The position numbers and the translations under genes are program-made. A stretch of 63,873 nt of DNA, the filler included. It is 9 parts of 9 records of this genome, joined end to end, with 100 filler letters (N's around TTAATTAATTAA, not from the genome) between each part and the next. Parts side by side here need not be neighbours in the genome. Positions count along the whole stretch, not along the records: positions 25,438 to 40,843 come from SRR20825010_1741; 8 more parts are not named here. One strand, given 5' to 3'. Shown here piece after piece: positions 6,873 to 40,843 of the stretch (its first letter is position 1; every line of letters starts with the position of its first letter). The notes below the pieces were generated by a model. The model saw nothing but the letters and a program-made list of their open reading frames with translations. It ran no database searches and was not told the DNA's origin.

Positions 6873-6880
6873 TCGGGGTC

Positions 6881-21407: not shown

Positions 21408-21507
21408 NNNNNNNNNNNNNNNNNNNNNNNNNNNNNNNNNNNNNNNNNNNNTTAATTAATTAANNNNNNNNNNNNNNNNNNNNNNNNNNNNNNNNNNNNN
21501 NNNNNNN
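21408..21507. other. Artificial contig linker
   Basis: N-run with TTAATTAATTAA core. Confidence 0.99.
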
Positions 21508-21508
21508 G

Positions 21509-21640
21509 TATGACCTGCAGGCCGGGCGTTACCTCACCATTGGTTTGACCAACGAGGCGGCTCAACCCTTCGTGTTCGACTTCACACCTGACCGCGCAAA
21601 CTACACACCAGCCGGCTTGCGTCGACTCGGCGTTCAGTAA
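21509..21640 (+). CDS. DUF1329 family protein, C-terminal fragment (missed by ORF track)
   Basis: Manual translation YDLQAGRYLTIGLTNEAAQPFVFDFTPDRANYTPAGLRRLGVQ*; YDL..GRY and YTP..LRR terminus; precedes YCF48-RND. Confidence 0.8.
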   Translation, partial: YDLQAGRYLTIGLTNEAAQPFVFDFTPDRANYTPAGLRRLGVQ

Positions 21641-21654
21641 CAGCAATGCGTATT

Positions 21655-21690
21655 AGGCTGCAGGGGGCATATGCCCTTTGTGGCCTTTTT
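21655..21690 (+). terminator. Intrinsic terminator after DUF1329 gene
   Basis: AGGCTGCAGGGGGCAT/ATGCCCTTTGTGGCCT stem followed by a T tract. Confidence 0.7.
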
Positions 21691-21709
21691 CAATTTCAAA
21701 GGATAGTCC

Positions 21710-22882: not shown

Positions 22883-22899
22883 ACGGACCCCATCAAACA

Positions 22900-25236: not shown

Positions 25237-25246
25237 GTAAGGGTCA

Positions 25247-25280
25247 GGAAAAGTGGGCTTATCGGCTCACTTTCCCTTTT
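25247..25280 (+). terminator. Probable terminator after RND gene
   Basis: GGAAAAGTGGGC-TTATCG-GCTCACTTTCCC hairpin followed by TTTT. Confidence 0.55.
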
Positions 25281-25337
25281 CCACACAGTTCATTTGAAGG
25301 GGTTGTGGATGGCACAACCACACCCCACAATCAAGGC

Positions 25338-25437: not shown

Positions 25438-26202
25438 GCCCATATCCTTCTTCATCATCAGCATGCCGGAGGCTGGCTTGATATCCAGCCCGCCGCTATC
25501 GAAGATCACGCCCTTGCCGACAATCGTCACCTTCGGATGGCTTTTCTTGCCCCAGCGGATATCGATCAGGCGCGGCGCCCGGTCGGCGGCACGGCCGACG
25601 GCATGGATCATCGAGAAATTCTCGGCCAGAAGCGCCTCGCCCTCAATGATCTCGATCTTCGCCTTGTAGTCTTTCGCCAGCGCGGCCGCCGCCTCGGCAA
25701 GCTCGGCCGGGCCGAGATCGTTTGCCGGCCGGTTGATCAGGTCACGGGCCAGCCCGGTCGCCTCGGCAATCCGGCGTACTTCGTCCTGGTCCGCACCGGT
25801 CGGCCAGACCAGCTCCGCCTTGAAGCTGGTCTTTTCCTTGAACTTGTCGAACTGGTAATGCGCCAGCGCCCATCCCGTTGCGGCACTGGTTGCCGCTGCG
25901 GGGCTCAGCTCCGCATCGAGATAATAGCGGCCCTTCGGCAAAGCCGCCGGCAGAGGCGCCAGATCCCAGAGCCCGCCGCCCGGCTCCTCCTGCTCCTCTA
26001 CCCCGAACAGAACCCGTTCCAGTCCGCCATCCGCATCCGGCAGGAAGCAGGTTGCTCCCGGTGCTGCCGAGAAATCCGATTCGCCGATCCAGCGTCCGAT
26101 CCGCGCGTCCGATCCCTTCAGCCAGCCCGGCAGGGTGGCGGCACTGACAGGGGTGAGCGGAATGGATTTCGGGGTTGCTTTGGCAACGAGGCGGAACGGC
26201 AT
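25438..26202 (-). CDS. Leucyl aminopeptidase (M17) family protein (3' truncated)
   Basis: ARDLINRPANDLGP, IHAVGRAA, VGKGVIFDSGGLDIKP and MKKDMG. Confidence 0.94.
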
Positions 26203-26373
26203 GGGAGGCTCCTGATAAGAGACAATCCATCCGTTCTATCCCGCCGGAGGGGCCTGCTCAAGCGCCGCAACGGGCCAATGAGACGCCGAAGCCACCGGCC
26301 CTCGCACGACAGAGGTTGCACGCGGGGGCCGGGCCGGTTCAAATGGCGGCAACAAAGTCCGGAGGAAACCGTC

Positions 26374-27033
26374 ATGGCGCCGTACAGCCTCATCATTGGA
26401 AACAAGAATTATTCGTCCTGGTCGCTGCGGCCATGGCTGATGATGACTGCATGCGACATCCCGTTCGAAGAGACCGTGATCGCGCTCGATACGCCGAACA
26501 CGCGGCAGGAAATCCTGCGGCACTCCCCGTCCGGCCGGGTTCCGGTTCTGAAGGACGGCGAGCTGACGGTCTGGGACAGCCTTTCCATCGGCGAGTATCT
26601 GGCGGAGAAGCATCCGGAAGCCCGCCTTTGGCCGGCTGATCCGATCGCCCGGTCGCGGGCCCGCTCGGTTTCCGCCGAAATGCATTCCGGCTTCGGCGCC
26701 GTGCGGCAGAACATGCCGATGAATGTCCGCTCCAGCTTCCCGGGTCAGGGACGCGGGCCGGGCGTGCAGGAAGACATCAACCGGATCAGTGCGATCTGGC
26801 GCAACCACCGTCGCCGGGTGACCGATCCCGAAGACGGGCCGTTCCTGTTCGGCCACTTCACCATAGCGGACGCGATGTTCGCCCCCGTGGTTTCCCGCTT
26901 CCGGACCTATGGTGTGGAGCTGACGGACGAAGCCGCGGCCTACGCCGAAGCGGTCTGGGACATGCCCGCCATGAAAACCTGGGCGGAAGACGCCAAGAAC
27001 GAGCCGATGGTGATCGACCGGCACGAATTCTAG
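26374..27033 (+). CDS. Glutathione S-transferase family protein
   Basis: GNKNYSSWSLRPWL, SPSGRVPVL, WDSLSIGEYLAE and FTIADAMFAPV; GGAGG RBS before ATG 26374. Confidence 0.93.
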   Translation: MAPYSLIIGNKNYSSWSLRPWLMMTACDIPFEETVIALDTPNTRQEILRHSPSGRVPVLKDGELTVWDSLSIGEYLAEKHPEARLWPADPIARSRARSVSAEMHSGFGAVRQNMPMNVRSSFPGQGRGPGVQEDINRISAIWRNHRRRVTDPEDGPFLFGHFTIADAMFAPVVSRFRTYGVELTDEAAAYAEAVWDMPAMKTWAEDAKNEPMVIDRHEF

Positions 27034-27043
27034 GCCGCATGCA

Positions 27044-28360
27044 TTACCCGGCCAGCCCGCGCTCCAGCCGGGGATAATACGCCGCCATCATCCCGGCCCG
27101 AACCAGCAGGAACAGGCTGTAGGCGGCCCAGAGCCCGTGATTGCCATACAGATCAATCAGCGGATAGGACGCTGCGACGAAGGCCGCGAGGGCGATGAGC
27201 ATGCCGTTGCGCATCTCCGCCCCGCGCGTCGCCCCGATGAAGATCCCGTCGAGCTGGAAGGACCAGACCGCGAAAAGCGGCATCGCCGCTGCCCAGAGAA
27301 GATAGTCGCGGGCGGCATCCCGGACCGCTTGGATGCTGGTCATGATGTCGATGAACAACGTTCCCGCCATGAAGAACAGAACAGCCATCAGAACAGCCAG
27401 AATGGCGGCGCCCTTGGTCGTGGCCACCACCGCCTCGCGCAACTGCAGGCGGGACCGCCGCCCGATCGCCTCGCCCACCAGCGCCTCGGCGGCATGGGCA
27501 TAGCCGTCCAGACCGTACCCGGCGACGCTTTTGAAGATCAGAAACACCGCATTTGCGGCCAGCACCGTATCGCCGAGCCTGGCGCTCTCGTTCATGAAGA
27601 AGGCCGAGGCCGTCAGCACGGCCAGCGTGCGGATGAAGATATCCCGGTTCACCGCCATCATGGCTTTCAGGCGCCGGATGGCGGCAAGCTCCCCGAGGCG
27701 CGGCAGGCGGACATCCCTCGGCGCCAGCCGCCAGACCAGCACGCCGCCAACCAGAAGCCCCGTATATTGGGCCGCCACGGTCGCCAGCGCGACACCCTCG
27801 ATGCCCCAGCCGAGCCCCAGAACAAAGGTGAGGTTCAGCACAATATTCACGGAATTGATGACAACCTGCTGGATAAGTCCGCCGCGCATGGCCTGCATGC
27901 CGAACAGCCAGCCCAGGATCGAGAAATTGCACAGGGCTGCCGGTGCGGCCCAGACCCGGACCATGAAATATTGCCGGGCGGCTTCTTCAACTTCATCGCT
28001 GCCGTCGAGGATGGAGAAAGCGAAATCCGCCATCGGCACAGTCAGGGCGAGGCAGATACCGCCGAAGAACACCGACAGAAGCAGAGCCCGGCCGAGACTG
28101 GCCAGAACCTCCGCCCCGTCTCCCGCACCTTTCGCCTGGGCGACAAAGCCCGTGGTCCCCATGCGCAGGAAGCCGAAGCCCCAATAGATGTAATTGAACA
28201 AGAGGGTGCCGAGCGCCACGCCGCCGATATAGAAGGCAGCATCCAGATGGCCGACCACGGCGGTATCCACCGCGCCGACCAGCGGCACCGTCAGATTTGA
28301 CAGCACGACAGGCCAGGCAAGTCTCCAGACCCGGCGATTGATGGTCGGCTGGAGAGACAT
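27044..28360 (-). CDS. MATE family efflux transporter (DinF-like)
   Basis: LAWPVVLSNLTVPLVGAVDTAVVGHL, FLRMGTTG, NRDIFIRT and FQLDGIFIG. Confidence 0.93.
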   Translation of the reverse strand: MSLQPTINRRVWRLAWPVVLSNLTVPLVGAVDTAVVGHLDAAFYIGGVALGTLLFNYIYWGFGFLRMGTTGFVAQAKGAGDGAEVLASLGRALLLSVFFGGICLALTVPMADFAFSILDGSDEVEEAARQYFMVRVWAAPAALCNFSILGWLFGMQAMRGGLIQQVVINSVNIVLNLTFVLGLGWGIEGVALATVAAQYTGLLVGGVLVWRLAPRDVRLPRLGELAAIRRLKAMMAVNRDIFIRTLAVLTASAFFMNESARLGDTVLAANAVFLIFKSVAGYGLDGYAHAAEALVGEAIGRRSRLQLREAVVATTKGAAILAVLMAVLFFMAGTLFIDIMTSIQAVRDAARDYLLWAAAMPLFAVWSFQLDGIFIGATRGAEMRNGMLIALAAFVAASYPLIDLYGNHGLWAAYSLFLLVRAGMMAAYYPRLERGLAG

Positions 28361-28483
28361 GGTGCGTGCTGCCTTCGATTGCTCGGGGTGGCGGGATGTA
28401 ATCCAGCCCGGATCATAAAGACAAGCCCGCCCGGCCGATCCGAACAAAATCGAACGGCCCGTCACCAGATCTGTAGAGGCTTG

Positions 28484-29461
28484 TTATCCGGCGAGAGACA
28501 GGGCGCCCGTCAGCAAGATCAGCGCGCCGCAGGCCAGCCGGAACAGGACGAGCGCGCGGCGAATATCGCCGATGACGGCATCCGCGCCGCCAGCCCCCAT
28601 CCAGGCATCCTCCACCTTCTTGCCGCCATAGACGCGTGGCCCGGCAAGGCGCAGGCCGAGCGCACCAGCCATCGCCGCTTCCGGCCAGCCCGCATTGGGC
28701 GAGCGGTGCAGCCGGGCATCCCTCAGGGTGGCCCTGAATGATGAGCGTATATCGGCGCCCGGCGTGACGAACGCGGCGGCCCAGATCAGCAGCGCCGAGA
28801 GACGGGCCGGGATCAGGTTCGCCAGATCGTCCAGCCGGGCGGAGGCCCAGCCGAATTCCAGATACCGGGCATTCTTGTGGCCGATCATGCTGTCGGCGGT
28901 GTTCAGCGCCTTGTAAGCAAGCAGGCCCGGCAGACCGGCGAGCAGATACCAGAAAGCCGGCGCCACCACGCCGTCGGAAAAATTCTCTGCCGCCGTCTCG
29001 ATGGCGGCCCGGCTGACGCCGCCTTCATCCAGTTGCTCCGGATCCCGGCCAACGATCATGGAAACCGCCCGGCGCGCGCCCGGCAAGCCATTCGCCTCGA
29101 ATGCCTTCGCCACCGCGATGACATGGTCATGCAGGCTTCTCTGGGCCAGAAAGACGGACGCGATCGCCGCTTCCAGCAGCCAGCCGTAACTCACGAAGGA
29201 AACGAGACGATGCAGCAGCCAGCCAGTCAGCGCCGCTGCGAGGAGCAACAGAACTACCAGCAGGACACCGCCCTGGCGGCGGGCGGCATCGCCTGCATCG
29301 GCCCGGTTCCAACGCGCCTCGCCCCAGCCGATCAGAGCACCGAACAGAACCACCGGGTGCGGCAGCCGCCTCCATAGCGCGGGGGGATCACCGATCAGCG
29401 CATCGAGCACCAGTGCAAGGCAGAGAATGCCCGCCGTGCTTTGCAATGCCGCTTCGATCAT
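28484..29461 (-). CDS. cbiB: Adenosylcobinamide-phosphate synthase CbiB/CobD
   Basis: GDP...HPV, MIVGRDP, AENFSDGVVAP, YKALNTADSMIGH and SPNAGWPEAAMAGALG. Confidence 0.95.
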   Translation of the reverse strand: MIEAALQSTAGILCLALVLDALIGDPPALWRRLPHPVVLFGALIGWGEARWNRADAGDAARRQGGVLLVVLLLLAAALTGWLLHRLVSFVSYGWLLEAAIASVFLAQRSLHDHVIAVAKAFEANGLPGARRAVSMIVGRDPEQLDEGGVSRAAIETAAENFSDGVVAPAFWYLLAGLPGLLAYKALNTADSMIGHKNARYLEFGWASARLDDLANLIPARLSALLIWAAAFVTPGADIRSSFRATLRDARLHRSPNAGWPEAAMAGALGLRLAGPRVYGGKKVEDAWMGAGGADAVIGDIRRALVLFRLACGALILLTGALSLAG

Positions 29462-29581
29462 GTCGCCCGTTTCCGCCGGTTGCCAAAGTCCGGCCGACTG
29501 ACACCATTTCCGGTGTTGTTTCCAGTAAATTCTACCGGTGAACAATGCGGCGGGCTAGGGCAGCGACTGCATGCCGGAGAC

Positions 29582-29664
29582 AAAAAAGCGGCCCGGTCAT
29601 GACGACCGGGCCGTTCGATTCAAGTGAGTTCTCACAAGGAGAATTCGGCTAAGGGACTCACCAC
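29582..29664 (-). ncRNA. Candidate ~82-nt trans-acting small RNA
   Basis: Own sigma70-like promoter, 5' stem GUGAGU/ACUCAC enclosing UCCCUU and UCUCCUU motifs, strong terminator CGGCCCGGUC-GUCAU-GACCGGGCCG-CUUUUUU; no ORF. Confidence 0.6.
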
Positions 29665-29669
29665 ATACG

Positions 29670-29698
29670 ATTCTACGCCTTCCGATTTTAATTTACAA
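29670..29698 (-). promoter_or_regulatory. sigma70-type promoter of the candidate sRNA
   Basis: Minus strand TTGTAA-17 bp-TAGAAT. Confidence 0.6.
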
Positions 29699-29762
29699 CA
29701 CGTAAACACATGTCGTTTAATTGGTTAAATCGTCTCTTCGTTTACGTTTGAAAGGTTTGCTG

Positions 29763-29996
29763 ATGGGACGGCGCTATTTCACACGCAGACGGCACGCCAT
29801 AAAGGCAAGCCGTCTCTGGGTCAGAACCACGACGTGGATTGCCGCGCCGTGTCTGGTTTTGTGGCTGGGCCACAAGGCTGTCTCGCACGGCACGCTGGAT
29901 CTTCCCGCAGTCGCCGTGATTGCCGTTTTGGCCGCTATCTATCTGGTTTCGGTCCTGCGCGTGCGCGGGCTGTCCGGTGAATGGACATTTTTCTAA
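29763..29996 (+). CDS. Small hypothetical membrane protein (77 aa)
   Basis: Basic N-terminus plus two hydrophobic segments; AAGG upstream; fills the gap between cobU and the sRNA. Confidence 0.5.
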   Translation: MGRRYFTRRRHAIKASRLWVRTTTWIAAPCLVLWLGHKAVSHGTLDLPAVAVIAVLAAIYLVSVLRVRGLSGEWTFF

Positions 29997-30029
29997 ACCG
30001 GCAGGCGTCTGAGTGAGCCGCCTGCCCCG

Positions 30030-30560
30030 TCAGCTTCCCTTTACCTGAACCGGAAGCCCGGCAACAACCAGGGTTACCCTGTCCGCGAGCGCCGCGATGC
30101 GCTGATTGAGACGCCCCGCATGATCGCGGAAGGCGCGGGCCAGCTTGTTCTCCGGAACGATACCAAACCCGACCTCGTTGGCGACCAGCATCACGTCTCC
30201 CGCCGCCGCACTGACAGCCGCGCAAAGCCGGTCGACCTCAGCATCCATATCCGCGTCCGCAAGCAGATGGTTCGTCAGCCAGAGCGTCAGGCAGTCGACA
30301 AGCAGAACAGTGTCCGGCCCCGCCTCCCGCAGCAATACAGCCGCCAGATCCCTCGGCTCCTCGACGGTCCGCCAGCCATCCGCCGCACGATCCGCCCGGT
30401 GCTGCGCGATGCGGGCTTTCATCTCGTCGTCATGCGCTTCGGCCGTGGCGACATAGATCAATGCGCGGCCCGTCTTGCGGCAGATAGTTTCAGCATGGCG
30501 GCTCTTGCCCGAGCGGGCGCCACCCAGTATCAGGGTCACCGATCCGCTGCTTTGCGTCAT
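30030..30560 (-). CDS. cobU: Bifunctional adenosylcobinamide kinase/guanylyltransferase CobU/CobP
   Basis: GGARSGKS P-loop, YVATA, LVDCLTLWL, NEVGFGIVP and FRDHAGRLNQ. Confidence 0.96.
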   Translation of the reverse strand: MTQSSGSVTLILGGARSGKSRHAETICRKTGRALIYVATAEAHDDEMKARIAQHRADRAADGWRTVEEPRDLAAVLLREAGPDTVLLVDCLTLWLTNHLLADADMDAEVDRLCAAVSAAAGDVMLVANEVGFGIVPENKLARAFRDHAGRLNQRIAALADRVTLVVAGLPVQVKGS

Positions 30561-30650
30561 AAGGGCTGTCCTTCATTCGCCTGTTCCGCATGCACGGACC
30601 AGAGTACACTTTGACGATATCCGGTCCCACCCGGCAAACAGGAGCACACC

Positions 30651-30854
30651 ATGCCACAGGACGATCTGACCATGAGCACGCAGCTGCTTCTGGAATCCGT
30701 CGAGGAAGACACCACCGACCTGCGCGAGGCCTGGGAACAGCTCCAGCGTATTCTCAACACCATGCGCGCCGAAGGCCTGCAGCCGCCGGAAGATCTCCTG
30801 AAGCTGGAAGAACGCATGCAGGCCGATTTCGCGGCGGATAACAGCGGCAGCTAG
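30651..30854 (+). CDS. Small acidic hypothetical protein (67 aa)
   Basis: AGGAG RBS 6 nt upstream; high-GC3 codon usage; helical heptad-like pattern. Confidence 0.7.
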   Translation: MPQDDLTMSTQLLLESVEEDTTDLREAWEQLQRILNTMRAEGLQPPEDLLKLEERMQADFAADNSGS

Positions 30855-30880
30855 AACGCCCGCCCTGATCCTGAAGGCCG

Positions 30881-32401
30881 TTAGCGCACCATCCCCGAGG
30901 CTTTCGCCCGGGGATCGCCGACGGCGGCGAGCGTGCCGTCATCATTCACCGCGACCGCCTGTACCGAAGCCAGCATCGGGTCCCGGCCCGGGCTGAGCTT
31001 GAGCTGCAGGTTGCGTGCTTCGGCGATGCCGGCGACGGTCTCCTCAAGCTCGGCATCCGCCAGAAGCGTTTCGGTTTCCGCATGCAGCCGGGCACGGCCG
31101 ACCGCGGACGGCAGATCGTCGCCCAGCACCAGACGGTTGAACAGAACCTGCATAATCGATGTCGGAATCCGGGTCGAACCCGATGCACCGATGGCCATGC
31201 GCACCTTGCCGTCCCGGAACATCAGGCTCGGCATCATGCTGGAGACAGGGCGCTTGCCGCCGACCACCTCGTTCGGATTGCCGGGCCACGGGCTGAACAG
31301 CATCATCTGGTTGTTCAGCAGGATACCCGTCCCGGGCAGAACCACACCGGAATGATTGTTGTTTGAATAGGTGATGCAGGCCGCATTGCCTTGCCGGTCG
31401 ATCACGGCGAGGCTCGTGGTCTCGCTCGACTCCCCGGAGGTAACCTTCACGAACGCAGGGTCGCCATAACCGGCCGCCCGCTTCCGGAACATCTCCAGCA
31501 TCGCGCCCGCCAGCAGATCGTAGTGCGCGCCGTCCGTGACGCTCTTGCCCTCCAGCGCCGCCAGCCCGGCAAAGACCAACCCGCCCGAGGAAGGCGGCGG
31601 CATGGTCGCAACATCGTGCCCCTTGAAACGGGCTGTCGCCGGAGCCCGCCAGATCGCCTCGTAGCTTTCCAGATCGGCGCGGCTGAGAAAGCCCTCATGG
31701 GCCTCCATCTCTGCCAGCAGCTGATCCGCGAGAGCGCCTTTGTAAAAACAGTCCGGCCCGTCTTTCGCGATCATCCGGAGAGACTGGCCATATTCCGGAT
31801 TGGCCATCTCGTCACCGGCCCGGTAGAGGCTGCCATCCGGCTTCAGCAACAGTTTGCGCGTTGCTTCCGTCAGGTTCAGCAACTCTTCCGTCCGGGCCAT
31901 GCGCAGGGCTGCCTTGTGCCCGACCTTGAAGCCGCCTTCCGCCAGTCGGATCGCAGGCTCCATAACATCGGCCATCGCCAGCTTGCCGAATTTCGCCTGT
32001 GCCTCGCCGAGCCCGCGCACCGTTCCGGGAACGGCGACCGAGCGATGACCGCGTTCGTTCTCGCGGCCTTTCACCCGGACGATATAAGCGTTGTCGGTAT
32101 CCATGGAGGCATAGAGGTCGTAACGCGCCGTCATCGGCGCCACGCCGAGGAAATCGACGGCTTCTGTCTTCCCGGAAGCGGCATCGTGCATGATCATGAA
32201 GCCACCGGCGCCGATGCCGGAATCAAGCGGCTCCACCGTCCCCATGACATAGGCGGCCGCGACCGCCGCATCGATCGCATTGCCGCCCGCCTCGAGGATG
32301 TCCAGCGCCGCCCGGCTGGCGTCGGCATTACCGCATGCGGCCGCGCCGGCTTTCGGCGCGCCCTGCTGCCATGTCATGGAGGTCGGTTCCTGCTCGGCCA
32401 T
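30881..32401 (-). CDS. Gamma-glutamyltransferase family (Ntn hydrolase), cytoplasmic
   Basis: GGNAIDAAVA, EPLDSGIGAGGF, VAVPGTVRG, PPPSSGG, nucleophile ETTSLAVID, GILLNN and GKRPVSSM; no signal peptide. Confidence 0.9.
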   Translation of the reverse strand: MAEQEPTSMTWQQGAPKAGAAACGNADASRAALDILEAGGNAIDAAVAAAYVMGTVEPLDSGIGAGGFMIMHDAASGKTEAVDFLGVAPMTARYDLYASMDTDNAYIVRVKGRENERGHRSVAVPGTVRGLGEAQAKFGKLAMADVMEPAIRLAEGGFKVGHKAALRMARTEELLNLTEATRKLLLKPDGSLYRAGDEMANPEYGQSLRMIAKDGPDCFYKGALADQLLAEMEAHEGFLSRADLESYEAIWRAPATARFKGHDVATMPPPSSGGLVFAGLAALEGKSVTDGAHYDLLAGAMLEMFRKRAAGYGDPAFVKVTSGESSETTSLAVIDRQGNAACITYSNNNHSGVVLPGTGILLNNQMMLFSPWPGNPNEVVGGKRPVSSMMPSLMFRDGKVRMAIGASGSTRIPTSIMQVLFNRLVLGDDLPSAVGRARLHAETETLLADAELEETVAGIAEARNLQLKLSPGRDPMLASVQAVAVNDDGTLAAVGDPRAKASGMVR

Positions 32402-32620
32402 GTCACCCTCTGAATGCGTACGTGAAAACGCCAGAGTGTGATCCATTCCGGCCCGGCCTGCACACGAATATTGCGATATGCAGAATACCCATTCCGGCAT
32501 TGATCGCGCTGCTCGCCGACAATCGTGCAACCGTCGGCTCTTGCCCGTCATCCGCCGCCGGTCTATGTCGGAACCTGGCCCCGCGCCGTTCCATTATCCG
32601 TGCCGAGAAAGAGATATCCC

Positions 32621-33619
32621 GTGTCGAAGACCCATCGCCTGCTCCTGACCCAGCCGAAAGGCAGCCCGCGCTACGAGATGCTGAAAAACAACCTGGAAAC
32701 GGATTGGGAAATCGAGACCTGGTCGAAGGATGATGGCGAGGATGCCTTCCGCGAGCGGATTGCGACGGTGGACGTGCTGGTCGGCGGCGGCGTGCCGGAC
32801 CTGCCGGAAGGCATTCCGCTGAAGCTGTTCCAGATCCCCTTTACCGGCTACGACTGGACCGGACCGGAGAAGATCCCGGCGGGCACGGTGGTCTGCAACA
32901 CCTTCGAACATGAAACCACGATCGCCGAGCACGTGCTCGCCGGCATGCTGGAATTCCAGACCGGCCTGATGCGCGAGACCCATCCGGTGATGAAGGAAAA
33001 ATCCTTCAACGGCCGGGACATCTCGAAGGGCCCGATGCACCGGGAGATGCGCGGCGCCACCGTCGGCATCGTCGGCTATGGCCATATCGGCCGCGAAGTG
33101 GCGAAGCGGTGCAAGGCCTTCGACATGCGGGTCATGGCGCTGTCCCGCACCAAGCGGGACGAGCCGGGTGTGGTCGACTGGTACGGCACTCTCGACGACA
33201 TGGACACACTGCTGGCCGAGAGCGATTTCGTTATCGTCACCGCACCGCTGAATGACGACACGCGCAGCATGATCGACGGCGCCGCCTTCGGAAAAATGAA
33301 GTCCGACGCGGTGATCTGCAATGTCGGACGCGGTGCCGTGGTGGATGAGGCCGCGCTTTACGAGGCGCTGTCGAGCAAGCAGATCCGGGGCGGCATCATC
33401 GATGTCTGGTACACCTACCCGTCGAAGAAAGACCCCAATCCCTGGCCGTCCAAATTCCCGTTCCAGAAGCTCGACAACATCATCATGTCGCCGCACAACT
33501 CGGCCTGGAGCAACGAGATGGCCAACCGCCGCTGGGCTTTCGTCGCCGCCAATCTCGACCGGTTCGCCCGGGGCGAGGAGCTACAGAATTTCTGCTTCGA
33601 GGGCATCCGCCAGGGCTGA
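32621..33619 (+). CDS. D-2-hydroxyacid dehydrogenase family protein
   Basis: GIVGYGHIG, CNVGRG, IDVW and MSPHNS motifs; GTG start at 32621. Confidence 0.92.
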   Translation: MSKTHRLLLTQPKGSPRYEMLKNNLETDWEIETWSKDDGEDAFRERIATVDVLVGGGVPDLPEGIPLKLFQIPFTGYDWTGPEKIPAGTVVCNTFEHETTIAEHVLAGMLEFQTGLMRETHPVMKEKSFNGRDISKGPMHREMRGATVGIVGYGHIGREVAKRCKAFDMRVMALSRTKRDEPGVVDWYGTLDDMDTLLAESDFVIVTAPLNDDTRSMIDGAAFGKMKSDAVICNVGRGAVVDEAALYEALSSKQIRGGIIDVWYTYPSKKDPNPWPSKFPFQKLDNIIMSPHNSAWSNEMANRRWAFVAANLDRFARGEELQNFCFEGIRQG

Positions 33620-33713
33620 GTAACGAGCACACCTTACTTAAACAATTAAGCAGGACGTGGCGCTTCAACGTCCCGTCCTGCCTTCTCGGAAAGTTTCTTC
33701 GGTGTCTGGCTCT

Positions 33714-34475
33714 TTATCTGGAGCTGTCAGTAGCCATTATACCAGTGAAAGACGCACCAGCTCGTGACAATGGGACAATCGTAGCGGCCATCTGCAACAA
33801 ATTCAGATCTGCCGAATCCCACTCAAGGTCATCGTCATACACAACCCGTTGAACAATGTTGTGATCTTCGCGCTGCTTGAGATCCAAATGCGCAATAGCC
33901 CTTGCGTTGATCGAATTTGAATCCGGCAGCACGGGGTCCACAACGAGCAAATGCTCTCGATCGAGCCTAATTACCCTATCGAATTTATAGGACCTGTTGC
34001 TTTTCCCTTGGAGGCGCTCTTCAGACATTATTCTGTCTTTCGCGAACGATCCTGAAAGCAACTCGTGAAGTTCATGACGAATATTGCGCCTGTGCTTCAC
34101 TTTCAAATTCTCCGCCCCCCATTGGGCGGCAGCAGCTGATACGTTGGCAACATACAAGATTGCGGACGCTAGGCACTCAGATGACACTGCCGGGGACAGA
34201 ATGGCGCCGTCTTTCGCATGAAGCCCTGAATGCCGACAGAAACGACGGAGAATCCTATCCGGATCATCAACGATCCGGTTGTGCGATACCAACTCGCCTA
34301 TTGCACCACCATCATCCGAGACAATAGCCCGATTTGAACCACCGTGTACGAAAACGACCACAGAGGCGCCGGATGGATACAGACAGTGTGTCGGCACCGC
34401 CACTGAGTTTTCAGATACGCGCCGAGGCTCGCTAAAGTCCTTCAGCGCATCCGCGATGAATTCTACCCCGCTCAT
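33714..34475 (-). CDS. DUF1828/DUF1829-like protein (N-terminal alpha/beta domain + restriction-endonuclease-like C-terminal domain)
   Basis: P...YPSG..VVVFV...IVSDDGGAI (DUF1828-like); LQGKSNRSYKFDRVI...VVDPV...VVYDD (DUF1829-like); low GC. Confidence 0.65.
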   Translation of the reverse strand: MSGVEFIADALKDFSEPRRVSENSVAVPTHCLYPSGASVVVFVHGGSNRAIVSDDGGAIGELVSHNRIVDDPDRILRRFCRHSGLHAKDGAILSPAVSSECLASAILYVANVSAAAAQWGAENLKVKHRRNIRHELHELLSGSFAKDRIMSEERLQGKSNRSYKFDRVIRLDREHLLVVDPVLPDSNSINARAIAHLDLKQREDHNIVQRVVYDDDLEWDSADLNLLQMAATIVPLSRAGASFTGIMATDSSR

Positions 34476-34972
34476 ACCAAACTCTCCCGCTTCGGCAGGT
34501 CCGGAATCTGTTCCGGCTGCGCTATATTAGTCTCGCCCAAGAACCAACGGAAAGCGTTCTCCCAACTCTGCACGTTTTGTGGCAGTGGCGCTCTCCACAA
34601 GAGCGGATCCGGAATGCTTTTGGGCGTAGCATCACCCCTGTTTAAGTGCCAAGGATGATAGTGAGGCCCGCATATGCGCTCACCACTACGTGGATGACCA
34701 GCGCGAAATGGGTTTATCTCTGATCTATATGGAGGCTCGTAATCGAGCCGCCAAATATTTAAATCCCGGAAATTTAACGTTATCGTGAACCGAAATTCAG
34801 CACTGCCCGGATATGCGGTTACACACAGCGTACAATTTGTACTTTCTCCAGAGACTAAGACAGGCCAAATAAGGCGCCTCTCTATCGAGCGGTTTCCGTC
34901 TCCAAAACTCGGGTTTCCGATTAACTCCTTGTTTGCAGCAAGAAGCTGATCGACCAAATCTGCAACACTCAT
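34472..34972 (-). CDS. Hypothetical protein with RLD...NP...GPHYH motif (DUF6978-like)
   Basis: IWRLDY...INP...GERICGPHYHPW...AFRWFL..TNI; stop overlaps next start (ATGA); low GC. Confidence 0.6.
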   Translation of the reverse strand: MSVADLVDQLLAANKELIGNPSFGDGNRSIERRLIWPVLVSGESTNCTLCVTAYPGSAEFRFTITLNFRDLNIWRLDYEPPYRSEINPFRAGHPRSGERICGPHYHPWHLNRGDATPKSIPDPLLWRAPLPQNVQSWENAFRWFLGETNIAQPEQIPDLPKRESLV

Positions 34973-35124
34973 TCACAACCCCGAATTGCAACGGAAATAA
35001 ACAATATCGATTATGAATCTGCAATGCCACTTGGTTCGAAGAGCTTCAGCGCCAAAGTTCAGTTTCAAAGTCCATGGAACCGATTCGTAAGCGTACCCCC
35101 TGAGGTCCCTCATAATCAGGCTTC

Positions 35125-35155
35125 AAAACAAACCGGCCGGGCACAGGGCCCGGCC
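35125..35155 (-). terminator. Intrinsic terminator of porin gene
   Basis: GGCCGGGC-5 nt-GCCCGGCC followed by GGTTTGTTTT on the minus strand. Confidence 0.65.
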
Positions 35156-35199
35156 AATCCGCACTCTCGGGTAAGGGATACCCGATCAGAATTCGTCAG

Positions 35200-36300
35200 T
35201 CAGAACTCGATTGTCATCCCGACCAGAGCCGCCGTGCCTTCGTTCTTGGAGCCGGTTTCGTCCTTGAACTCGCTGTGGAACAGGCTGCCGAGCAGGGCCA
35301 CGCCCGGGCCGATCTCGTAATTCGCCGACAGCATGATCGCATCGTTCTCGCTTTCGCCTGCGACAGCGACCTGATCCTCGAACTCGCCCTTGTAATAGGA
35401 CAGGCTGACCGTCATCGGATCGAAGGCGTATGAGACGCCGATATCGAAGCCCTCTCCGTCGAGCGAAGTCGCCGTATCGGTTCCGCTGCCGGCATTGCCG
35501 TCCGTGTTGGCGTAGGAACCGCCAACCGTGAAGCCGGCATGGGCGACCTCGAAGCCGAAGCTATACCCCTTGGCCCGGTCAGCCGTGCTGTTATCCGGTG
35601 CGGACGCGGTCAGGAAACCGGCCGCGAGGGCAAGCGAGGTGCCTTCGCCGAAATCGCGGACATAGTTCACGCCGATGGCGAAACCGTCCTTGTAGAGATC
35701 GCCTGCCGGCTGGGCGTTGCTGTCCCGCTCGAATTCCGGGATGTAGGACACGCCGAGCTGCAGATCCATGAGCCGCGGTGAGTAATAGGTCAGCTTGGTG
35801 CCCTTGTCCTCGCCGAGGAACAGATAGGTCGACTTGAAAGCGGAATCGGAATCGCCGCCGGTCGGATTGTCGATCCAGTCGTCGATATCCCCGTCATTGA
35901 TGCCGAGACCGACATCCGGTGCCGCATAATGCATCTGGGCGGCGGCGTTATCGCGTTTGCCAAGCTCCAGCCGGCCAAACTTTGCCTCGGCCCAGCTGTA
36001 GCTGTCCTTGATCTGCTCGCCATCGTCGGAATTGCCGTTGAGCACGACCTCGACGCCGACCTGCAGACCGTTATCCAGCGTGAAATCACCGGCAAAGCCG
36101 AGTTCCGTGTCGGACTTGACGTCGAAGCCGGACGTATCGGCCGTGCCGGTATCGTCATTGTCGGCATACCCGAAATACTGGGTCATGTAGCCTTCAATGC
36201 CGAGATGCAGTTTTTCCGCCGCATCGGCCGTCGGCGCCCAGGCTGCCGCGGCGGTGGCGAACACAAGCGGCAAGCCGCCACGTCTGAGAGACTGGATCAA
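35200..36300 (-). CDS. Outer membrane porin (Gram-negative porin family)
   Basis: Signal peptide (..ADA|AE), LDNGLQVGV, FGRLELG and KLTYYSPR; C-terminal Phe; AAGGAG RBS before TTG start. Confidence 0.93.
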   Translation of the reverse strand: MIQSLRRGGLPLVFATAAAAWAPTADAAEKLHLGIEGYMTQYFGYADNDDTGTADTSGFDVKSDTELGFAGDFTLDNGLQVGVEVVLNGNSDDGEQIKDSYSWAEAKFGRLELGKRDNAAAQMHYAAPDVGLGINDGDIDDWIDNPTGGDSDSAFKSTYLFLGEDKGTKLTYYSPRLMDLQLGVSYIPEFERDSNAQPAGDLYKDGFAIGVNYVRDFGEGTSLALAAGFLTASAPDNSTADRAKGYSFGFEVAHAGFTVGGSYANTDGNAGSGTDTATSLDGEGFDIGVSYAFDPMTVSLSYYKGEFEDQVAVAGESENDAIMLSANYEIGPGVALLGSLFHSEFKDETGSKNEGTAALVGMTIEF

Positions 36301-36368
36301 TTGATCACTCCTTGAAGAAGGTCACCCGCCGCAGCGACTGCGGAGGGCAATGGTGGATTTTCATGTAT

Positions 36369-36385
36369 TTGCGAATAATTCGCAA
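36369..36385. promoter_or_regulatory. Perfect palindrome resembling the alphaproteobacterial Fur box
   Basis: TTGCGAAT-A-ATTCGCAA, ~70 bp upstream of the porin start. Confidence 0.65.
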
Positions 36386-36427
36386 TATCATTTTGAATGA
36401 TGATTTATGATATGTTATAATATTACA

Positions 36428-37294
36428 TTAAAGCAAGCCGGTTAATGCCCGCACAAGCACGGCAGTAAGCGCGGACCGGGTCGAGGCGTGCCGCTCGACG
36501 ACAATGACCCGGCGCGTCGCGACAGGATCGCCAAACGGCAGGACCCTGAGTGCGTCCCGTGTTCCGGGGCCGAGCGCATAGGCAGGCACCACGGCGACGC
36601 CCAGCCCGCAGCTCACCATCTCGATGATCGGCTCGATTGCATCCAGCTCCATCGCCTCATCCACCTGAAGCGCACGGTCCCGCAAGCCATGCTCGATGAT
36701 CCGGCCGACTCCGGTGCGCCGGTTGAAACGGATGAAGGGATGGCGGGTCAGCAGCGCCGCATCCGTCGCACCGGTCAGCGCCAGGGGCGCGATCACGGAT
36801 AACGGCTCCTCGAAAACCAGATACTCCTTCAGCTCCGGCAGCAACCGGTCCGGCGCCGTCAGGATAGCGGCATCAAGCTCCCCGTGCGCGACCCGCCCGA
36901 GCAGGCCCGCGGAAAGCCCGCTTTCAATCCGCACCCGCAGATCCGGATATTTCTCATGCAGGCTTGTCAGCGCGCCCGGAAGAATGCCGGTGCTGGCGGT
37001 CTGGATCACACCGAGCCGGAGCGTGCCCGCGATATGCCCGTCGGGCTGCACCGACTGCTTCAGATCCTCGTACTGGGTCAGGATCGCCCGTGCCTGCGGG
37101 ATCAGAGCCGCGCCCCGGTCATTCAGCACCGGCGGGCGGCGGGACCGGTCGAACAGATCCGCACCCAATTCCTGCTCCAGTGTCCGCATCTGCATGCTGA
37201 CGGCGGATTGGGCCAGCGCGAGACCGTCCGCGGCGGCGGCGAAACTGCCCCGTGAGGCGACTTCGAGAAAGATCTGCAGGCGGCGCAGGGACAT
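36428..37294 (-). CDS. LysR family transcriptional regulator
   Basis: LRRLQIFLEVASRGSFAAAADGLALAQSAVSMQMRTLEQELGADLFDR HTH; divergent from acdA. Confidence 0.96.
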   Translation of the reverse strand: MSLRRLQIFLEVASRGSFAAAADGLALAQSAVSMQMRTLEQELGADLFDRSRRPPVLNDRGAALIPQARAILTQYEDLKQSVQPDGHIAGTLRLGVIQTASTGILPGALTSLHEKYPDLRVRIESGLSAGLLGRVAHGELDAAILTAPDRLLPELKEYLVFEEPLSVIAPLALTGATDAALLTRHPFIRFNRRTGVGRIIEHGLRDRALQVDEAMELDAIEPIIEMVSCGLGVAVVPAYALGPGTRDALRVLPFGDPVATRRVIVVERHASTRSALTAVLVRALTGLL

Positions 37295-37303
37295 CGGCTT
37301 TTC

Positions 37304-37333
37304 TTCACTATTTCTGAATTTAAGTATCAGAAA
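37304..37333. promoter_or_regulatory. LysR-type operator
   Basis: TTCA-N7-TGAA (T-N11-A) at 37304-37318, overlapping a TTTCTGA-N9-TCAGAAA dyad, in the divergent promoter region. Confidence 0.6.
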
Positions 37334-37440
37334 TATGCGCTTGCCTGAAGTTATTCCCAACCGCACACTTCACGGAGCCGTGAGACGCGCGTGAAATCCG
37401 CGCTCCACGAAAAACAAGAACACCTGCGTGAGGAAACGCC

Positions 37441-38676
37441 ATGTTTTTCGACCTGACCCCGGAGCAGAAAGACCTGCAGGCCCGCGCCCGCGCGCTTGCG
37501 GTGGATGTCATCGCCCCGCGCGCCGCCGAGGTGGACCGCAGCGAGCAATATCCCTGGGACAATGTTCAGGCGCTGACAGACGCCGGTTTCATGGGCATGA
37601 CCGTGCCGAAGGAATATGGCGGGCCCGGCCGTTCCTATCTCGATACCGTGCTGGTGATCGAGGAAATGGCAGCGGCCTGCGGCGTCACCGGCCGGATCAC
37701 GGTCGAGGGCAATATGGGCGCGATCTCCGCGATCATGACCTATGGGACCGACGCCCAGAAGAAGCTTGGCGCCGAGCATGTACTGTCCGGCGACAAGCTG
37801 GCCATCTGCATCACCGAGCCGGATGCCGGCAGTGCGGCGACCCTGATGACCACCCGGGCCGACAAGCGCGGCGATACCTATGTGCTGAACGGCAAGAAAC
37901 ACTGGATCACGGGCGGCGGCGTCTCCCGCCTACACCTGATCTTCGCCCGCGTCTTTGACGAGGACGGCACCGAGCTCGGCATCGGCGGCTTCCTCGCCGA
38001 CAAGGATAAAGCGGACGGACTTGTCATCGGCACCCGCGAGCCGACCATGGGCCTGCGCGGCATTCCGGAAACCGAAATCATCTTCAACGACCTGGAAATC
38101 CCGGCCTCCATGGCCCTGCTGCCGCCAAGCGGCTTCAAGCGCGGCTTCGCCGATCTGATGAGCGCCTATAACGCCCAGCGCGTCGGCGCCGGAACCGTGG
38201 GCATGGGCATCGCCGCCGGGGCCTACCGGCACGCCCTTGCCTTCGCCGGCGAGCGCGAGCAGTTCGGCCGCCCGATTGCCGAATTCCAGGGCCTGCAATG
38301 GATGCTGGCGGACATGTCCGTGCAGCTCGAGGCGGCCCGTTCCCTGATCTACCGGGCGGCAGCCAGCGCCGAAGGCCCGAGCGCTCCGTTCCCAGACGCG
38401 ACACTCGCGGCCCAGGCCAAGATCATGGCGTCCGAAATGGCCATCAAGGTGACCACGGACGCCCTGCAGGTGTTCGGCGCGCGCGGCTATTCCCGGAACT
38501 ATCCGATGGAACGGATGCAGCGGGACGCGCGCATGTTCACGATCGGCGGAGGCACCGCACAGATCTTGCGCACCGTCGTGGCCTCCCGCATTCTCGAGCG
38601 GAAATTGCCGCAGACCCGGGACGGCCACCAGCGCCTCGCGGAAAAAGAAACCGCCGCCCGGCTCGCCGCCGAATAG
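37441..38676 (+). CDS. acdA: 3-sulfinopropionyl-CoA desulfinase (acyl-CoA dehydrogenase fold)
   Basis: ACAD fold lacking the catalytic Glu (FTIGGGTAQILR; AYNAQRVG); GRITV, AICITEP, WITGGGVSRLHLIFARV and KLPQTRDG match the Advenella Acd desulfinase signature as I recall it. Confidence 0.85.
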   Translation: MFFDLTPEQKDLQARARALAVDVIAPRAAEVDRSEQYPWDNVQALTDAGFMGMTVPKEYGGPGRSYLDTVLVIEEMAAACGVTGRITVEGNMGAISAIMTYGTDAQKKLGAEHVLSGDKLAICITEPDAGSAATLMTTRADKRGDTYVLNGKKHWITGGGVSRLHLIFARVFDEDGTELGIGGFLADKDKADGLVIGTREPTMGLRGIPETEIIFNDLEIPASMALLPPSGFKRGFADLMSAYNAQRVGAGTVGMGIAAGAYRHALAFAGEREQFGRPIAEFQGLQWMLADMSVQLEAARSLIYRAAASAEGPSAPFPDATLAAQAKIMASEMAIKVTTDALQVFGARGYSRNYPMERMQRDARMFTIGGGTAQILRTVVASRILERKLPQTRDGHQRLAEKETAARLAAE

Positions 38677-38713
38677 TCTCTTCAGACTGGCCCCGTCAGA
38701 CAGGAACAGCCCC

Positions 38714-40321
38714 ATGCGTATTGCCGATGTGATTGCCCGCCGCCTGTACGAGGCGGGGGTCCGCTATGCTTTTGGCGTGCCGGGGGGCGAGGTGCTGACC
38801 CTTGTGGATGCGCTGGAGAAGGCCGGGATCAGGTTTCTGCTGGCCAAGCATGAGAATGCGGCGGGCTTCATGGCGGAAGGCGTCTGGCACATGACCGGCG
38901 CGCCCGGCGTGCAGGTCTGCACCGTCGGTCCGGGCGCGGCAAACGCCGTGAACGTCACCGCCAATGCGGAGCAGGACCGGGTGCCGCTGATCGTGCTCAC
39001 CGGCTGCGTCGATGCGGGTGAGGCCGTGACCTACAATCATCAGGTCTTCGACCACACGGCGGTTTTCGGCCCGGTCACCAAGGCCAGCGTCACCATGCCG
39101 GAAAAGAACGCGGACGCGCTGATCGACAAGCTGGTGCGCCTCGCCATGGCGGACCGGCCGGGCCCGGTGCATATCGATCTGCCCATCGCCGTCGCCGCGA
39201 AAGAGATCGCAGACGCCAAACCGGTCAGACGCCCGGCCCCCCAACCCTCCGCTCCCGCGCCGGGAGACGCGCTGGATGCCGCCCGTGCCGCGCTGGCCAA
39301 GGCCGAACGCCCGCTGATCGTCGCCGGGCTCGACGTGGTCAATCAGAACGCGGCCGACACCCTGGCCGGTTTTGCCCGGAAATTCGGCGCGCCGGTGATC
39401 GCCAGCTACAAGGCCAAGGGGGTGTTGGCGGAAGACGACCCGCTGTCCCTCGGCGGCGCTGGCCTGTCCCCGCTCGCGGACACGCACCTGAAACCGGTGA
39501 TCGAGGCGGCAGATTTCATCCTGCTCGCAGGCTATGACCCGATCGAAATGCGCCCCGGCTGGCAGAACCTCTGGGATCCGGCGGAAAAGACCGTGGTCGA
39601 GCTGCTGGCCGCGTCCGAATATTCCTACATGCATGACGCCACGATGACCTTCCACGCCCATGTCGGCGAAAGCCTGAAGGCGCTCGGAGACGGCGTCGCG
39701 CCGCGCGCCACCTGGGACGGCCCCCTGATCGCCGACACCCGCTCCGCGCTCGCAGGCGCCTTCGGTCAGAACGAGGCCTGGGGCCCCGCCGCAATCACCA
39801 CCACTGTCCGCGCCAACACCCCGCGCGACGCGGTGCTGACCGTCGATAGCGGCGCCCACCGCATCCTCGCCAGCCAGGTCTGGGAAGCACAGGTGCCGCA
39901 CGCGGTCCTGCAATCCACCGGCCTCTGCACCATGGGCTGCGCCCTCCCCCTCGCCACCGGCGCCAAACTCGCCGCGCCCGACCGGGCGGTGGTGGCCTTT
40001 ACCGGTGACGGCGGCCTGGAGATGGTGCTGGGAGAGCTGGTGGCCCTGCGGGACCTGAAGCTGCCGGTCATCGTCGTCGTCTTCGTCGACGCCTCGCTGG
40101 CGCTGATCGAGAAGAAACAGCGGGAGATGAAATACGGCAATGCCGGGGTCGATATGCAGGAGACGGATTTCGTCGCCATCGCCGAAGCGCTCGGCGGCAA
40201 GGGTGTGTGGTGCGAGGACCGGGAGACACTGGCCGAAGCGGTGCGGACCGGTCTTACGGCGGATACGTTTACGCTCTGCGCCTGCCGGATTGACCGGCAG
40301 AGTTACGACGGCCGGATCTAG
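38714..40321 (+). CDS. Thiamine diphosphate-dependent enzyme (acetolactate synthase large-subunit-like)
   Basis: FGVPGGE, KHENAAGFMAEG, GPGAAN, RPGPVHIDLP, TMGCALP and GDGG...VFVD ThDP motif. Confidence 0.9.
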   Translation: MRIADVIARRLYEAGVRYAFGVPGGEVLTLVDALEKAGIRFLLAKHENAAGFMAEGVWHMTGAPGVQVCTVGPGAANAVNVTANAEQDRVPLIVLTGCVDAGEAVTYNHQVFDHTAVFGPVTKASVTMPEKNADALIDKLVRLAMADRPGPVHIDLPIAVAAKEIADAKPVRRPAPQPSAPAPGDALDAARAALAKAERPLIVAGLDVVNQNAADTLAGFARKFGAPVIASYKAKGVLAEDDPLSLGGAGLSPLADTHLKPVIEAADFILLAGYDPIEMRPGWQNLWDPAEKTVVELLAASEYSYMHDATMTFHAHVGESLKALGDGVAPRATWDGPLIADTRSALAGAFGQNEAWGPAAITTTVRANTPRDAVLTVDSGAHRILASQVWEAQVPHAVLQSTGLCTMGCALPLATGAKLAAPDRAVVAFTGDGGLEMVLGELVALRDLKLPVIVVVFVDASLALIEKKQREMKYGNAGVDMQETDFVAIAEALGGKGVWCEDRETLAEAVRTGLTADTFTLCACRIDRQSYDGRI

Positions 40322-40338
40322 CCCCACACCCTCCACCG

Positions 40339-40420
40339 TTTTCCCGGCCACCGAGCCGGGACCTGTCAGATCGTGGAGCGGAGCCCGTCCGAACAAGGTC
40401 CCGGATCAGGTCCGGGAAAA
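40339..40420. repeat. REP/MITE-like palindromic intergenic element
   Basis: TTTTCCCGGCCACCGAGCCGGGACCT...AGGTCCCGGATCAGGTCCGGGAAAA terminal inverted repeats; same family as 16179-16263. Confidence 0.7.
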
Positions 40421-40444
40421 GAGCGGAGGTGACGCCTCAGCCCC

Positions 40445-40843
40445 TCACCCGCACTTCGAATAGCCGCAGCTCGTGCACAGGTCGCAGCCTTCCTGTTTCA
40501 TCAGGGAGACATCGCCGCAGGTCGGGCACTGAGCCGGGATCGGGCCGCCGACGCCACGGCTGTCCATGGCGACGACCTTCTTCTTGCCGCCGAAATCCAT
40601 CTCCAGCGTATCCGGGTCTTTCAGAAAGTCGATCGCGTGCAAATGCTGTTCGATCACGCTGCCGATGGCCGCGAGCAGGGAGGGCACGTATTTGCCGCCC
40701 ATCCAGCAGCCGCCGCGCGGATCGAAGACCGCTTTCAGCTCCTCGACCACGAAGGAGACATCGCCGCCGCGCCGGAAGACCGCGCTGATCATCCGGGTCA
40801 GCGCCACGGTCCAGGCGTAATGCTCCATGTTCTTGGAATTGAT
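40445..40843 (-). CDS. nrdJ: Class II (B12-dependent) ribonucleotide reductase, C-terminal fragment
   Basis: INSKNMEHYAWTVALTRMISAVFRRGGDV...FDPRGG; terminal zinc ribbon CPTC...EGCDLCTSCGYSKCG. Confidence 0.88.
   Translation of the reverse strand: MNSKNMEHYAWTVALTRMISAVFRRGGDVSFVVEELKAVFDPRGGCWMGGKYVPSLLAAIGSVIEQHLHAIDFLKDPDTLEMDFGGKKKVVAMDSRGVGGPIPAQCPTCGDVSLMKQEGCDLCTSCGYSKCG

Follow-up and report, generated by a model that had tools for sequence, protein, structure and literature searches.

What can two small genes of foreign composition be doing when they stand alone between a 2-hydroxyacid dehydrogenase gene and a porin gene on a chromosome? The genes in question, g1 (34472..34972, minus strand, 166 amino acids) and g2 (33714..34475, minus strand, 253 amino acids), lie in a low-GC cassette of 1504 bp (33622..35125) within the window, that is, the whole analysed stretch of DNA, which comprises 63,873 nucleotides in nine joined parts of one genome, filler included; the cassette belongs to the part from SRR20825010_1741 (positions 25,438 to 40,843). 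As judged from profile alignments and gene order, the pair is a divergent, stand-alone alphaproteobacterial sister branch of PDC-M24, a two-gene defence candidate listed in PADLOC, and of the canonical module made up of DUF6978 (PF22398) and DUF1828 (PF08861)/DUF1829 (PF08862) proteins. The kind is already catalogued as a candidate and, therefore, the pair is not a new system. Its function may be that of a conflict module, in which g1 would act as the effector and g2 as its binding partner.

The Cassette as an Insertion

The flanking dehydrogenase gene (32525..33619, plus strand; 2-Hacid_dh_C, E 1.5e-47 in Pfam) is chromosomal and syntenic, with 85-94% nucleotide identity in relatives, and the flanking porin gene (35200..36300, minus strand; Porin_4, E 6.2e-38 in Pfam) is found in five of nine syntenic relatives and is missing from the four closest. 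Since the former ends at 33619 and the latter at 35200, the insert is placed between two 3' ends, as a first-pass annotation made from the letters alone had described, together with the two genes of 166 and 253 amino acids and their ATGA overlap. The same annotation had delimited a low-GC stretch of deviating codon usage at 33620..35124, within two bases of the boundary obtained independently by comparison with the relative G411 (33622-35125), and its reading of the composition is borne out. Thus, the guanine plus cytosine (GC) content of 33622-35125 is 0.506 versus a window mean of 0.614 (standard deviation 0.04 over windows of 1504 bp) and falls within the bottom 18 of the 624 windows of that size, and third-position GC (GC3) is 0.49 in g1 and 0.54 in g2, compared with 0.84 in the dehydrogenase and 0.78 in the porin gene.

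Among 401 sampled genomes from the class to which Rhodospira trueperi (L001) belongs, one close relative was found, G136, at 93% dehydrogenase identity; 41 genomes around G136 were then searched with window positions 32900-37100 and the loci were compared by blastn. Nine relatives carry the site on one contig, and in a tenth, G414, the contig ends at the site. The gene pair is present at the site in none of the nine syntenic relatives (0/9), and for this reason the segment 33622-35125 is an insertion. In G411, G407, G413, and G410, the dehydrogenase gene is followed by a spacer of 213, 75, 197, and 149 bp, respectively, and then by the porin gene and a LysR-family regulator gene, the cassette replacing this 75-213 bp spacer of porin-bearing relatives. 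G412 has a different insert of 1329 bp in the dehydrogenase-porin spacer, followed by the porin gene, and in G409, G406, G136, and G408 only 122-224 bp separate the dehydrogenase gene from the LysR gene, the porin gene also missing. Against G411, the nearest porin-bearing relative, homology ends at 33621, just past the dehydrogenase stop codon, and restarts at 35126, at the terminal hairpin of the porin gene. A g2 profile run across the 41 genomes around G136 found only two distant copies, in G414 and G415, both elsewhere in the genome. In four public runs from two studies, which may include the source of the window, positions 32600-36400 recur with 0 differences on one contig each, and none of these four runs contains an insert-less form. 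Horizontal acquisition of the cassette, proposed at first pass with the advice to look for an empty site in sister genomes, is supported by the 0/9 score of the relatives at this site and by the foreign GC content.

No transposase or integrase gene occurs among 18 neighbouring open reading frames (ORFs) scanned between 22.9 and 45.6 kb, in keeping with the first-pass annotation, no transfer RNA gene that might serve as an integration site lies within 18-40 kb, and no target-site duplication or terminal inverted repeats were seen at the insert ends.

Kinship and Predicted Fold of g2

The catalogued candidate is reached through g2. The first-pass annotation had expected PADLOC to return no match, whereas g2 matches the model PDC-M24B (E 4.6e-9, 34.3 bits), with residues 23-239 aligned on profile positions 23-246 of 256, as well as phrog_1960 (E 1.9e-8), and PDC-M24B is also matched at E<=0.1 by six of the eight g2-like proteins from related loci. 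Across the g2 family of 39 members, 18 match DUF1828 and 4 match DUF1829. Moreover, when this family was aligned by hhalign with 119 canonical DUF1828+DUF1829 proteins (rows from the best 120 of 5,459 matches, each with an identity to its query of 58% or more), the probability was 89.6% with an E-value of 1.9e-6 over 218 columns, residues 13-247 falling on 17-252. This alignment shows g2 to be, in terms of sequence, a remote full-length DUF1828+DUF1829 homologue, a likeness that had at first been noticed by eye.

The AlphaFold model of g2 has a mean predicted local distance difference test (pLDDT) score of 91.8 and consists of two domains, which match the chaperone-like and PD-(D/E)xK-like folds suspected earlier. 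The N-domain (residues 1-125; 34101..34475, minus strand) is predicted to adopt a type III secretion chaperone / YbjN-like fold, matched over the whole domain, while the C-domain (residues 130-253; 33717..34088, minus strand) contains, in the model, the alpha-beta-beta-beta-alpha-beta core of PD-(D/E)xK nucleases. Within it, D180 is nearly invariant and D166 is outside the columns conserved at 90% or more.

Kinship and Conserved Residues of g1

The relationship of g1 to DUF6978 has to be traced through its family. Sub-cut-off matches to DUF6978 (best E 2.2e-5) recur among its close members, in 3 of 20, and among its distant ones, in 15 of 68, a full-library profile search gathered 371 g1 representatives at E<=1e-3, nearly all of 160-180 amino acids, and 19-40% of the members of the nearest Atlas clusters carry DUF6978. 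In hhalign, 141 g1-family sequences aligned with a two-sequence DUF6978 profile across 128 columns (probability 78.7%, E 1.7e-5), the R-x-D, H-x-N-P, and P-H-x-H motifs of both sides coinciding, and the g1 family aligned with a six-sequence DUF6978 profile at 42.3% (E 2.6e-4). The kinship is also favoured by synteny with DUF1828/1829, and the view that g1 is a remote DUF6978 relative, held since the first pass, is supported by these profile matches. The motifs named at that stage are present in g1 and g2, with other spacings than those given (RLD-x9-NP-x13-GPHYH and GKS-x5-FD, not x8, x11, and x4). A second likeness that had been suggested, to TumE/DUF6516-type toxins, has been rejected as homology, since g1 has no such Pfam match and hhalign gave probabilities of 3.1% (11 columns) and 0.8%.

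The model PDC-M24A is matched by none of 20 close g1-family members (0/20), by 1 of 60 representatives of the wider family (P0087, 1e-4), and by 1 of 7 g1-like proteins from related loci (L007, 1.3e-3). NCBIfam contains no match for g1 or g2, and the best E-values in a sequence search of the PDB were 1.2 with the g1 profile and 0.43 with the g2 profile. The AlphaFold2 model of g1 (pLDDT 94.5) matched no solved fold in the fold searches and matches one uncharacterised phage protein in BFVD.

The codons from R75 to N111 (34640..34750, minus strand) encode a conserved polar cluster composed of R75, D77, H/E85, N87, H104, H106, W108, and N111. Among the 141 family sequences, R75 is conserved in 133, D77 in 123, N87 in 137, H104 in 132, H106 in 139, W108 in 139, and N111 in 140, and position 85 is H in 119 and E in 16, the window clade having E. 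Since position 85 is either H or E and is found beside two histidines and an aspartate, this cluster may form a metal-binding or acid-base site, and g1 can be regarded as a putative enzymatic effector. Residues 74-88 of g1 (W-R-L-D-Y-E-P ... E-I-N-P; window 34708-34755) show a 16-residue likeness to the CdiA-CT chain 5t86_A, described in a preprint as an RNase of the BECR fold with a D/E/N, H, R/K active site. This likeness is not significant (whole-sequence E 1.7), the chain is absent from the g1 fold-search results, and the likeness serves only as a lead towards the BECR RNase fold.

Conservation of the Pair and Its Catalogued Relatives

Close homologues fall into 19 clusters for g1 and 39 clusters for g2. 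In all five genome loci found by tblastn (Rhodospira, two alphaproteobacterial assemblies, Bradyrhizobium, and Hyphomicrobium), the g1 homologue lies immediately upstream of the g2-like gene, and in both plasmid loci (2/2) a g1-like ORF, unannotated in the gene table, is found in the same place. In L032 (G414) the likeness of the upstream ORF to g1 is weak (E 1.6e-4), and in L031 (G415) an upstream ORF of 183 amino acids has a 4-bp overlap with the g2-like gene and no detectable similarity to g1. Thus, an upstream ORF abuts the g2-like gene in nine of nine related loci and is detectably g1-like in eight of them, while the 4-bp overlap seen in the window also occurs in L003, L004, L005, L031, L032, and L033; each of the genomes G001-G005 holds a single copy. 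Comparison of these loci shows that g1 and g2 are conserved as a pair, in line with the coupling proposed at first pass. The neighbouring genes vary from locus to locus, and a tblastn search with g2 against phage records gave no match.

Some surroundings of the related pairs deserve mention in their own right. In three of the nine loci, the pair has an IS1595-family transposase gene at a distance of no more than about 1 kb (L004:563-1510, L006:5414-6379, and L031:2347-3222), L004 having a serine recombinase too, which raises the possibility that the pair is carried along by such elements; no such gene accompanies the window copy. In L007, plasmid p1 of Caenibius sp. WL, the pair (6465-7669) is carried on a phage-like plasmid with integrase, helix-turn-helix, and DUF1064 genes, and is placed between a leftward early operon and a helix-turn-helix gene, adjoining a thermonuclease gene. 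L002, the only related locus with a defence-candidate neighbour, has a PDC-M41A match (L002:14231-15214, E 3.4e-73) about 3.5 kb downstream of the pair, with two ORFs of GC 0.39-0.43 (L002:12337-13304) between them.

The canonical relatives are organised in the same manner. In a phylum sample of 401 genomes, DUF6978 scores above the cut-off in three, where it is in every case followed closely, and in the same orientation, by DUF1828 and/or DUF1829, and one of these arrangements, in G643, reads hsdM, hsdS, DUF6978 (148 amino acids), DUF1828/1829 (253 amino acids), one ORF, and a ResIII helicase, the first junctions being 4-bp overlaps. DUF1828 occurs in 12 of the 401 genomes. The ORF upstream of it is DUF6978-like or g1-like by hidden Markov model (HMM) in 7 of the 12, two of the seven being sequences from which the HMM was built; in 2 more it has 164-171 amino acids and an R-x-(D/E) ... 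H ... H-x-H pattern recognised by eye only, and in the other 3 it is missing or incomplete, or the contig stops there. Hence, the first partner is near constant and yet evolves too fast for present models, and the canonical DUF6978 to DUF1828/1829 pair is a conserved two-gene module. The window pair shares with this module the protein lengths, the gene order, the 4-bp overlap, and the aligned motifs of the first (R-x-D, H-x-N-P, P-H-x-H) and second protein (T..L, DDG, GKS, FD). However, identity in the profile alignments is about 17-18%, the window proteins fall under all three gathering cut-offs, and the window clade has E at position 85 where the wider family has H.

A similar comparison can be made with PDC-M24. 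According to the available accounts (10.1101/2024.01.29.577857; PMC12988326), PDC systems are 145 untested phage defence candidates included in PADLOC, chosen, as the first of these describes, by their embedding in BREX, DISARM, and type I restriction-modification (R-M) loci. The 'M' of PDC-M24 presumably stands for 'multi-gene', and the name PDC-M24 was not found in the literature searched. As in PDC-M24, the window has two genes on one strand in the order A then B, with A first in nine of nine related loci; B has about 253 amino acids, g2 matching PDC-M24B, and A has about 150-170, the g1 family touching PDC-M24A. In contrast, g1 itself lacks a PDC-M24A match, and the window copy is alone between the dehydrogenase and porin genes, outside any defence locus.

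Predicted Interaction between g1 and g2

Modelling of the two proteins together, which had been recommended at first pass, predicted binding, with a score of 0.75 versus 0.00 for the best control, at least 73% of contacts common to the runs, and a partner pLDDT of at least 85; of 78 solved complexes, 51 attained this mark, as did 2 of 108 mismatched pairs. The predicted g2 interface is located on the N-domain (residues 16-66, 72, 89-91, 121, and 126-130) and includes the invariant P34, S35, and G56, and that of g1 would consist of residues 28-37, 46-72, 77, 80, 82-86, and 122-125, including D77 and position 85. The model thus supports the view that g1 and g2 bind each other via the N-domain of g2.

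Possible Function and Competing Explanations

We infer the enzymatic role of g1, the polarity of the pair, and its biological role as follows. The chances seem about even that the pair is a stand-alone conflict module, toxin-antitoxin-like or abortive-infection-like, with g1 as effector and g2 as binder or sensor. In this mechanism, g1 would be an enzymatic effector that probably acts on nucleic acid, and g2 would bind it through the chaperone-like N-domain at or beside D77 and residues 82-86, in order to restrain or target it. The nuclease-fold domain of g2 would be the DNA-binding or sensing part, or might represent a non-canonical second nuclease, and the pair, as a conflict module, would also stabilise itself where it lands. 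A more elaborate proposal, which is on the unlikely side, is that DUF6978-type proteins, g1 included, are metal-dependent or acid-base nuclease toxins of a new fold, that the chaperone-like DUF1828 domain of the partner restrains the toxin, and that the partner uses its degenerate PD-(D/E)xK domain to detect either foreign DNA or the condition of a restriction system nearby. In that case, the window clade would demonstrate that the pair can operate as an autonomous mobile abortive-infection module outside defence islands.

Several observations weigh against assigning the pair to conflict in this way. The sole Pfam match of g1, to DUF6978, has 12.1 bits and an E-value of 0.25, under the gathering cut-off of 29.6, and g2 itself matches 0 Pfam families at E<=1; g1 also has 0 matches to PADLOC models at E<=1 and, therefore, PADLOC would probably not call the system. 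The strand of residues 176-182 of g2 (secondary-structure register) carries D180-P-V182 at the expected (D/E)xK place, with V182 invariant in 39 of 39 members, and the C-domain has no conserved lysine, which makes nuclease activity of g2 doubtful. The complex was modelled from single sequences, without alignments, 7 of 44 blind-drawn neighbour pairs also passed the test, and R75, N87, H104, H106, and N111 are not among the residues listed as touching. The defence-island setting anticipated at first pass was not found: PADLOC matched 0 of 15 neighbours in the window and 2 of 52 in the related loci, these two being a generic OmpA/MotB-type match and PDC-M41A in L002, and most of the neighbours with Pfam matches in L001, L003, and L005 serve metabolism or transport. 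Finally, the PDC candidates are called untested by their authors in the account cited (10.1101/2024.01.29.577857), and no experiment on any member of the kind was found in the literature searched.

The polarity of the pair could be reversed, with g2 as the effector, in the form of a non-canonical PD-(D/E)xK DNase, and g1 as its regulator, sensor, or inhibitor. Precedents would be the Can2 and Card1 type of proteins, which join a sensor to a PD-(D/E)xK domain and are effectors in CRISPR signalling; in addition, GKS and F-D are common to the window clade and the canonical family, and D180 is nearly constant. Nevertheless, the lack of the lysine, the D-P-V with its invariant valine, and the imperfect conservation of D166 (below 90%) are hard to reconcile with such a DNase, the polar cluster is denser and better conserved in g1, and g1 is predicted to be contacted by the N-domain of g2 and not by its nuclease-fold domain, all of which makes this arrangement unlikely. 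Alternatively, the pair might be plain addiction (toxin-antitoxin) cargo of mobile DNA that works by post-segregational killing and has no anti-phage role, an explanation with which the compact overlapping architecture, the isolated insertion between housekeeping genes, the IS1595-family transposase genes at most about 1 kb away in three of nine related loci, and the copies on two plasmids, one of them phage-like, would all be compatible. It seems rather improbable, as a canonical relative sits within a type I R-M operon and the family was, as far as the source describes, chosen as a defence candidate for such embedding; however, many toxin-antitoxin pairs defend against phages too, with the result that addiction and defence overlap.

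A function unrelated to conflict, such as that of an accessory pair in DNA repair or nucleic-acid processing, or of a protein with its dedicated chaperone, is highly improbable. It would account for the resemblance of the g2 N-domain to secretion chaperones and YbjN-type regulators and would suit a window without defence context and three Pfam families all of unknown function. By contrast, the patchy distribution (0/9 syntenic relatives, with DUF6978 in 4 and DUF1828 in 12 of 401 genomes), the foreign composition, and the company kept by relatives, which adjoin transposase genes, ride on a phage-like plasmid, or are embedded in an R-M operon, are typical of mobile conflict genes and not of housekeeping genes.

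Comparison with Other Known Systems

In the prrC-type arrangement, a type I R-M operon harbours an effector gene. In G643 the canonical relative, between hsdS and an hsdR-like helicase gene, is similarly placed, whereas none of the 18 ORFs scanned around the window copy is an R-M gene, the comparison being one of arrangement alone. The CRISPR ancillary nucleases Can2, Card1, and Cdn1 and restriction endonucleases differ from g2, which has no CARF/SAVED sensor domain, 4-11% identity to them, and no recognisable (D/E)xK. With TumE-TumA (DUF6516, PF20126; PMC10584680), g1 shares the character of a small alpha+beta protein without a solved relative, and the window shares the bicistronic pair and the R-x-D ... 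H-x-H pattern found in TumE sequences. However, the TumE ORFs collected have 92-144 amino acids versus 166 in g1, and TumE is, in that account, mostly encoded downstream of its partner, whereas g1 is upstream.

A further system for comparison is HipAD/DS-6 (PMC13092281), a two-gene defence system reported there as validated, in which the DUF1829-bearing, non-kinase partner DS-6B is modelled as binding both toxin and DNA. It differs from the window in that a kinase of the HipA type serves there as effector, and its partner carries DUF3037 in place of DUF1828. DS-6B is the one experimental link between DUF1829 and defence in the literature searched, the other papers naming these domains being unrelated surveys.

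Expression Signals and Other Features of the Region

The g1 stop codon overlaps the g2 start codon in the ATGA at 34472..34475 (minus strand), which suggests translational coupling, and a GGGAGAG stretch lies 5' of the g2 start. The start of g1 is shared by its homologues as M-x-(I/V)-A-(D/N)-L-(V/I)-D. Upstream of g1, a non-coding leader of 153 bp and GC 0.458 (34973..35125, minus strand) completes the insert. The promoter region placed by the first-pass annotation at 34975-35020 is indeed AT-rich (GC 0.348); the promoter itself is unsupported and can only be presumed, since a sigma-70 consensus scan of 33500-35300 found 0 promoter-like sites versus 1.2 expected. On the 3' side of g2, a repeat search found a hairpin (33650..33681, minus strand) with 13-nt arms that are 85% complementary and a 6-nt loop, which may be a terminator; it did not pass the strict terminator scan, which found 0 sites around the insert.

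Small cargo may have landed repeatedly in the dehydrogenase-porin spacer. The 1329-bp insert of G412 (L022:3376-4704, equivalent to window 33620-35199) has a GC content of 0.58 and holds a minus-strand ORF of 338 amino acids with no Pfam or PADLOC match. The porin gene is missing in L024, L025, L026, and L028, which come from the four relatives whose dehydrogenase genes are most similar to that of the window (92-94% identity), and G136 retains two short porin remnants, one of 57 bp (86%) and one of 32 bp (94%); therefore, that lineage has lost its porin gene, and the older arrangement survives in the window. Elsewhere, the window has a second low-GC stretch at about 20900-25300, whose 1504-bp windows (0.495-0.512) are the lowest of all and which is possibly another acquired region; it contains an MMPL-family transporter gene (22900-25236, GC 0.52) and an ORF of 390 amino acids (21710-22882). 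The GC content also dips to 0.51 at 29450-29900, between a cobD-like gene (28484-29545) and a cobU-like gene (30030-30560), which are separated by an ORF of 91 amino acids (29721-29996) with no Pfam match.

Significance

The partner family to which g2 is related is large, with 5,459 protein clusters at E<=1e-5 in the search made with a canonical protein. The locus offers a clean natural gain, the same chromosomal site being empty in relatives, together with precise mutation targets in g1, whose model fits no solved fold, and a predicted interface between g1 and g2. If the pair proves to act in defence or as a toxin-antitoxin system, a role could be assigned to three Pfam domains that now lack one, and current PADLOC and Pfam models would be missing a whole alphaproteobacterial branch of it.

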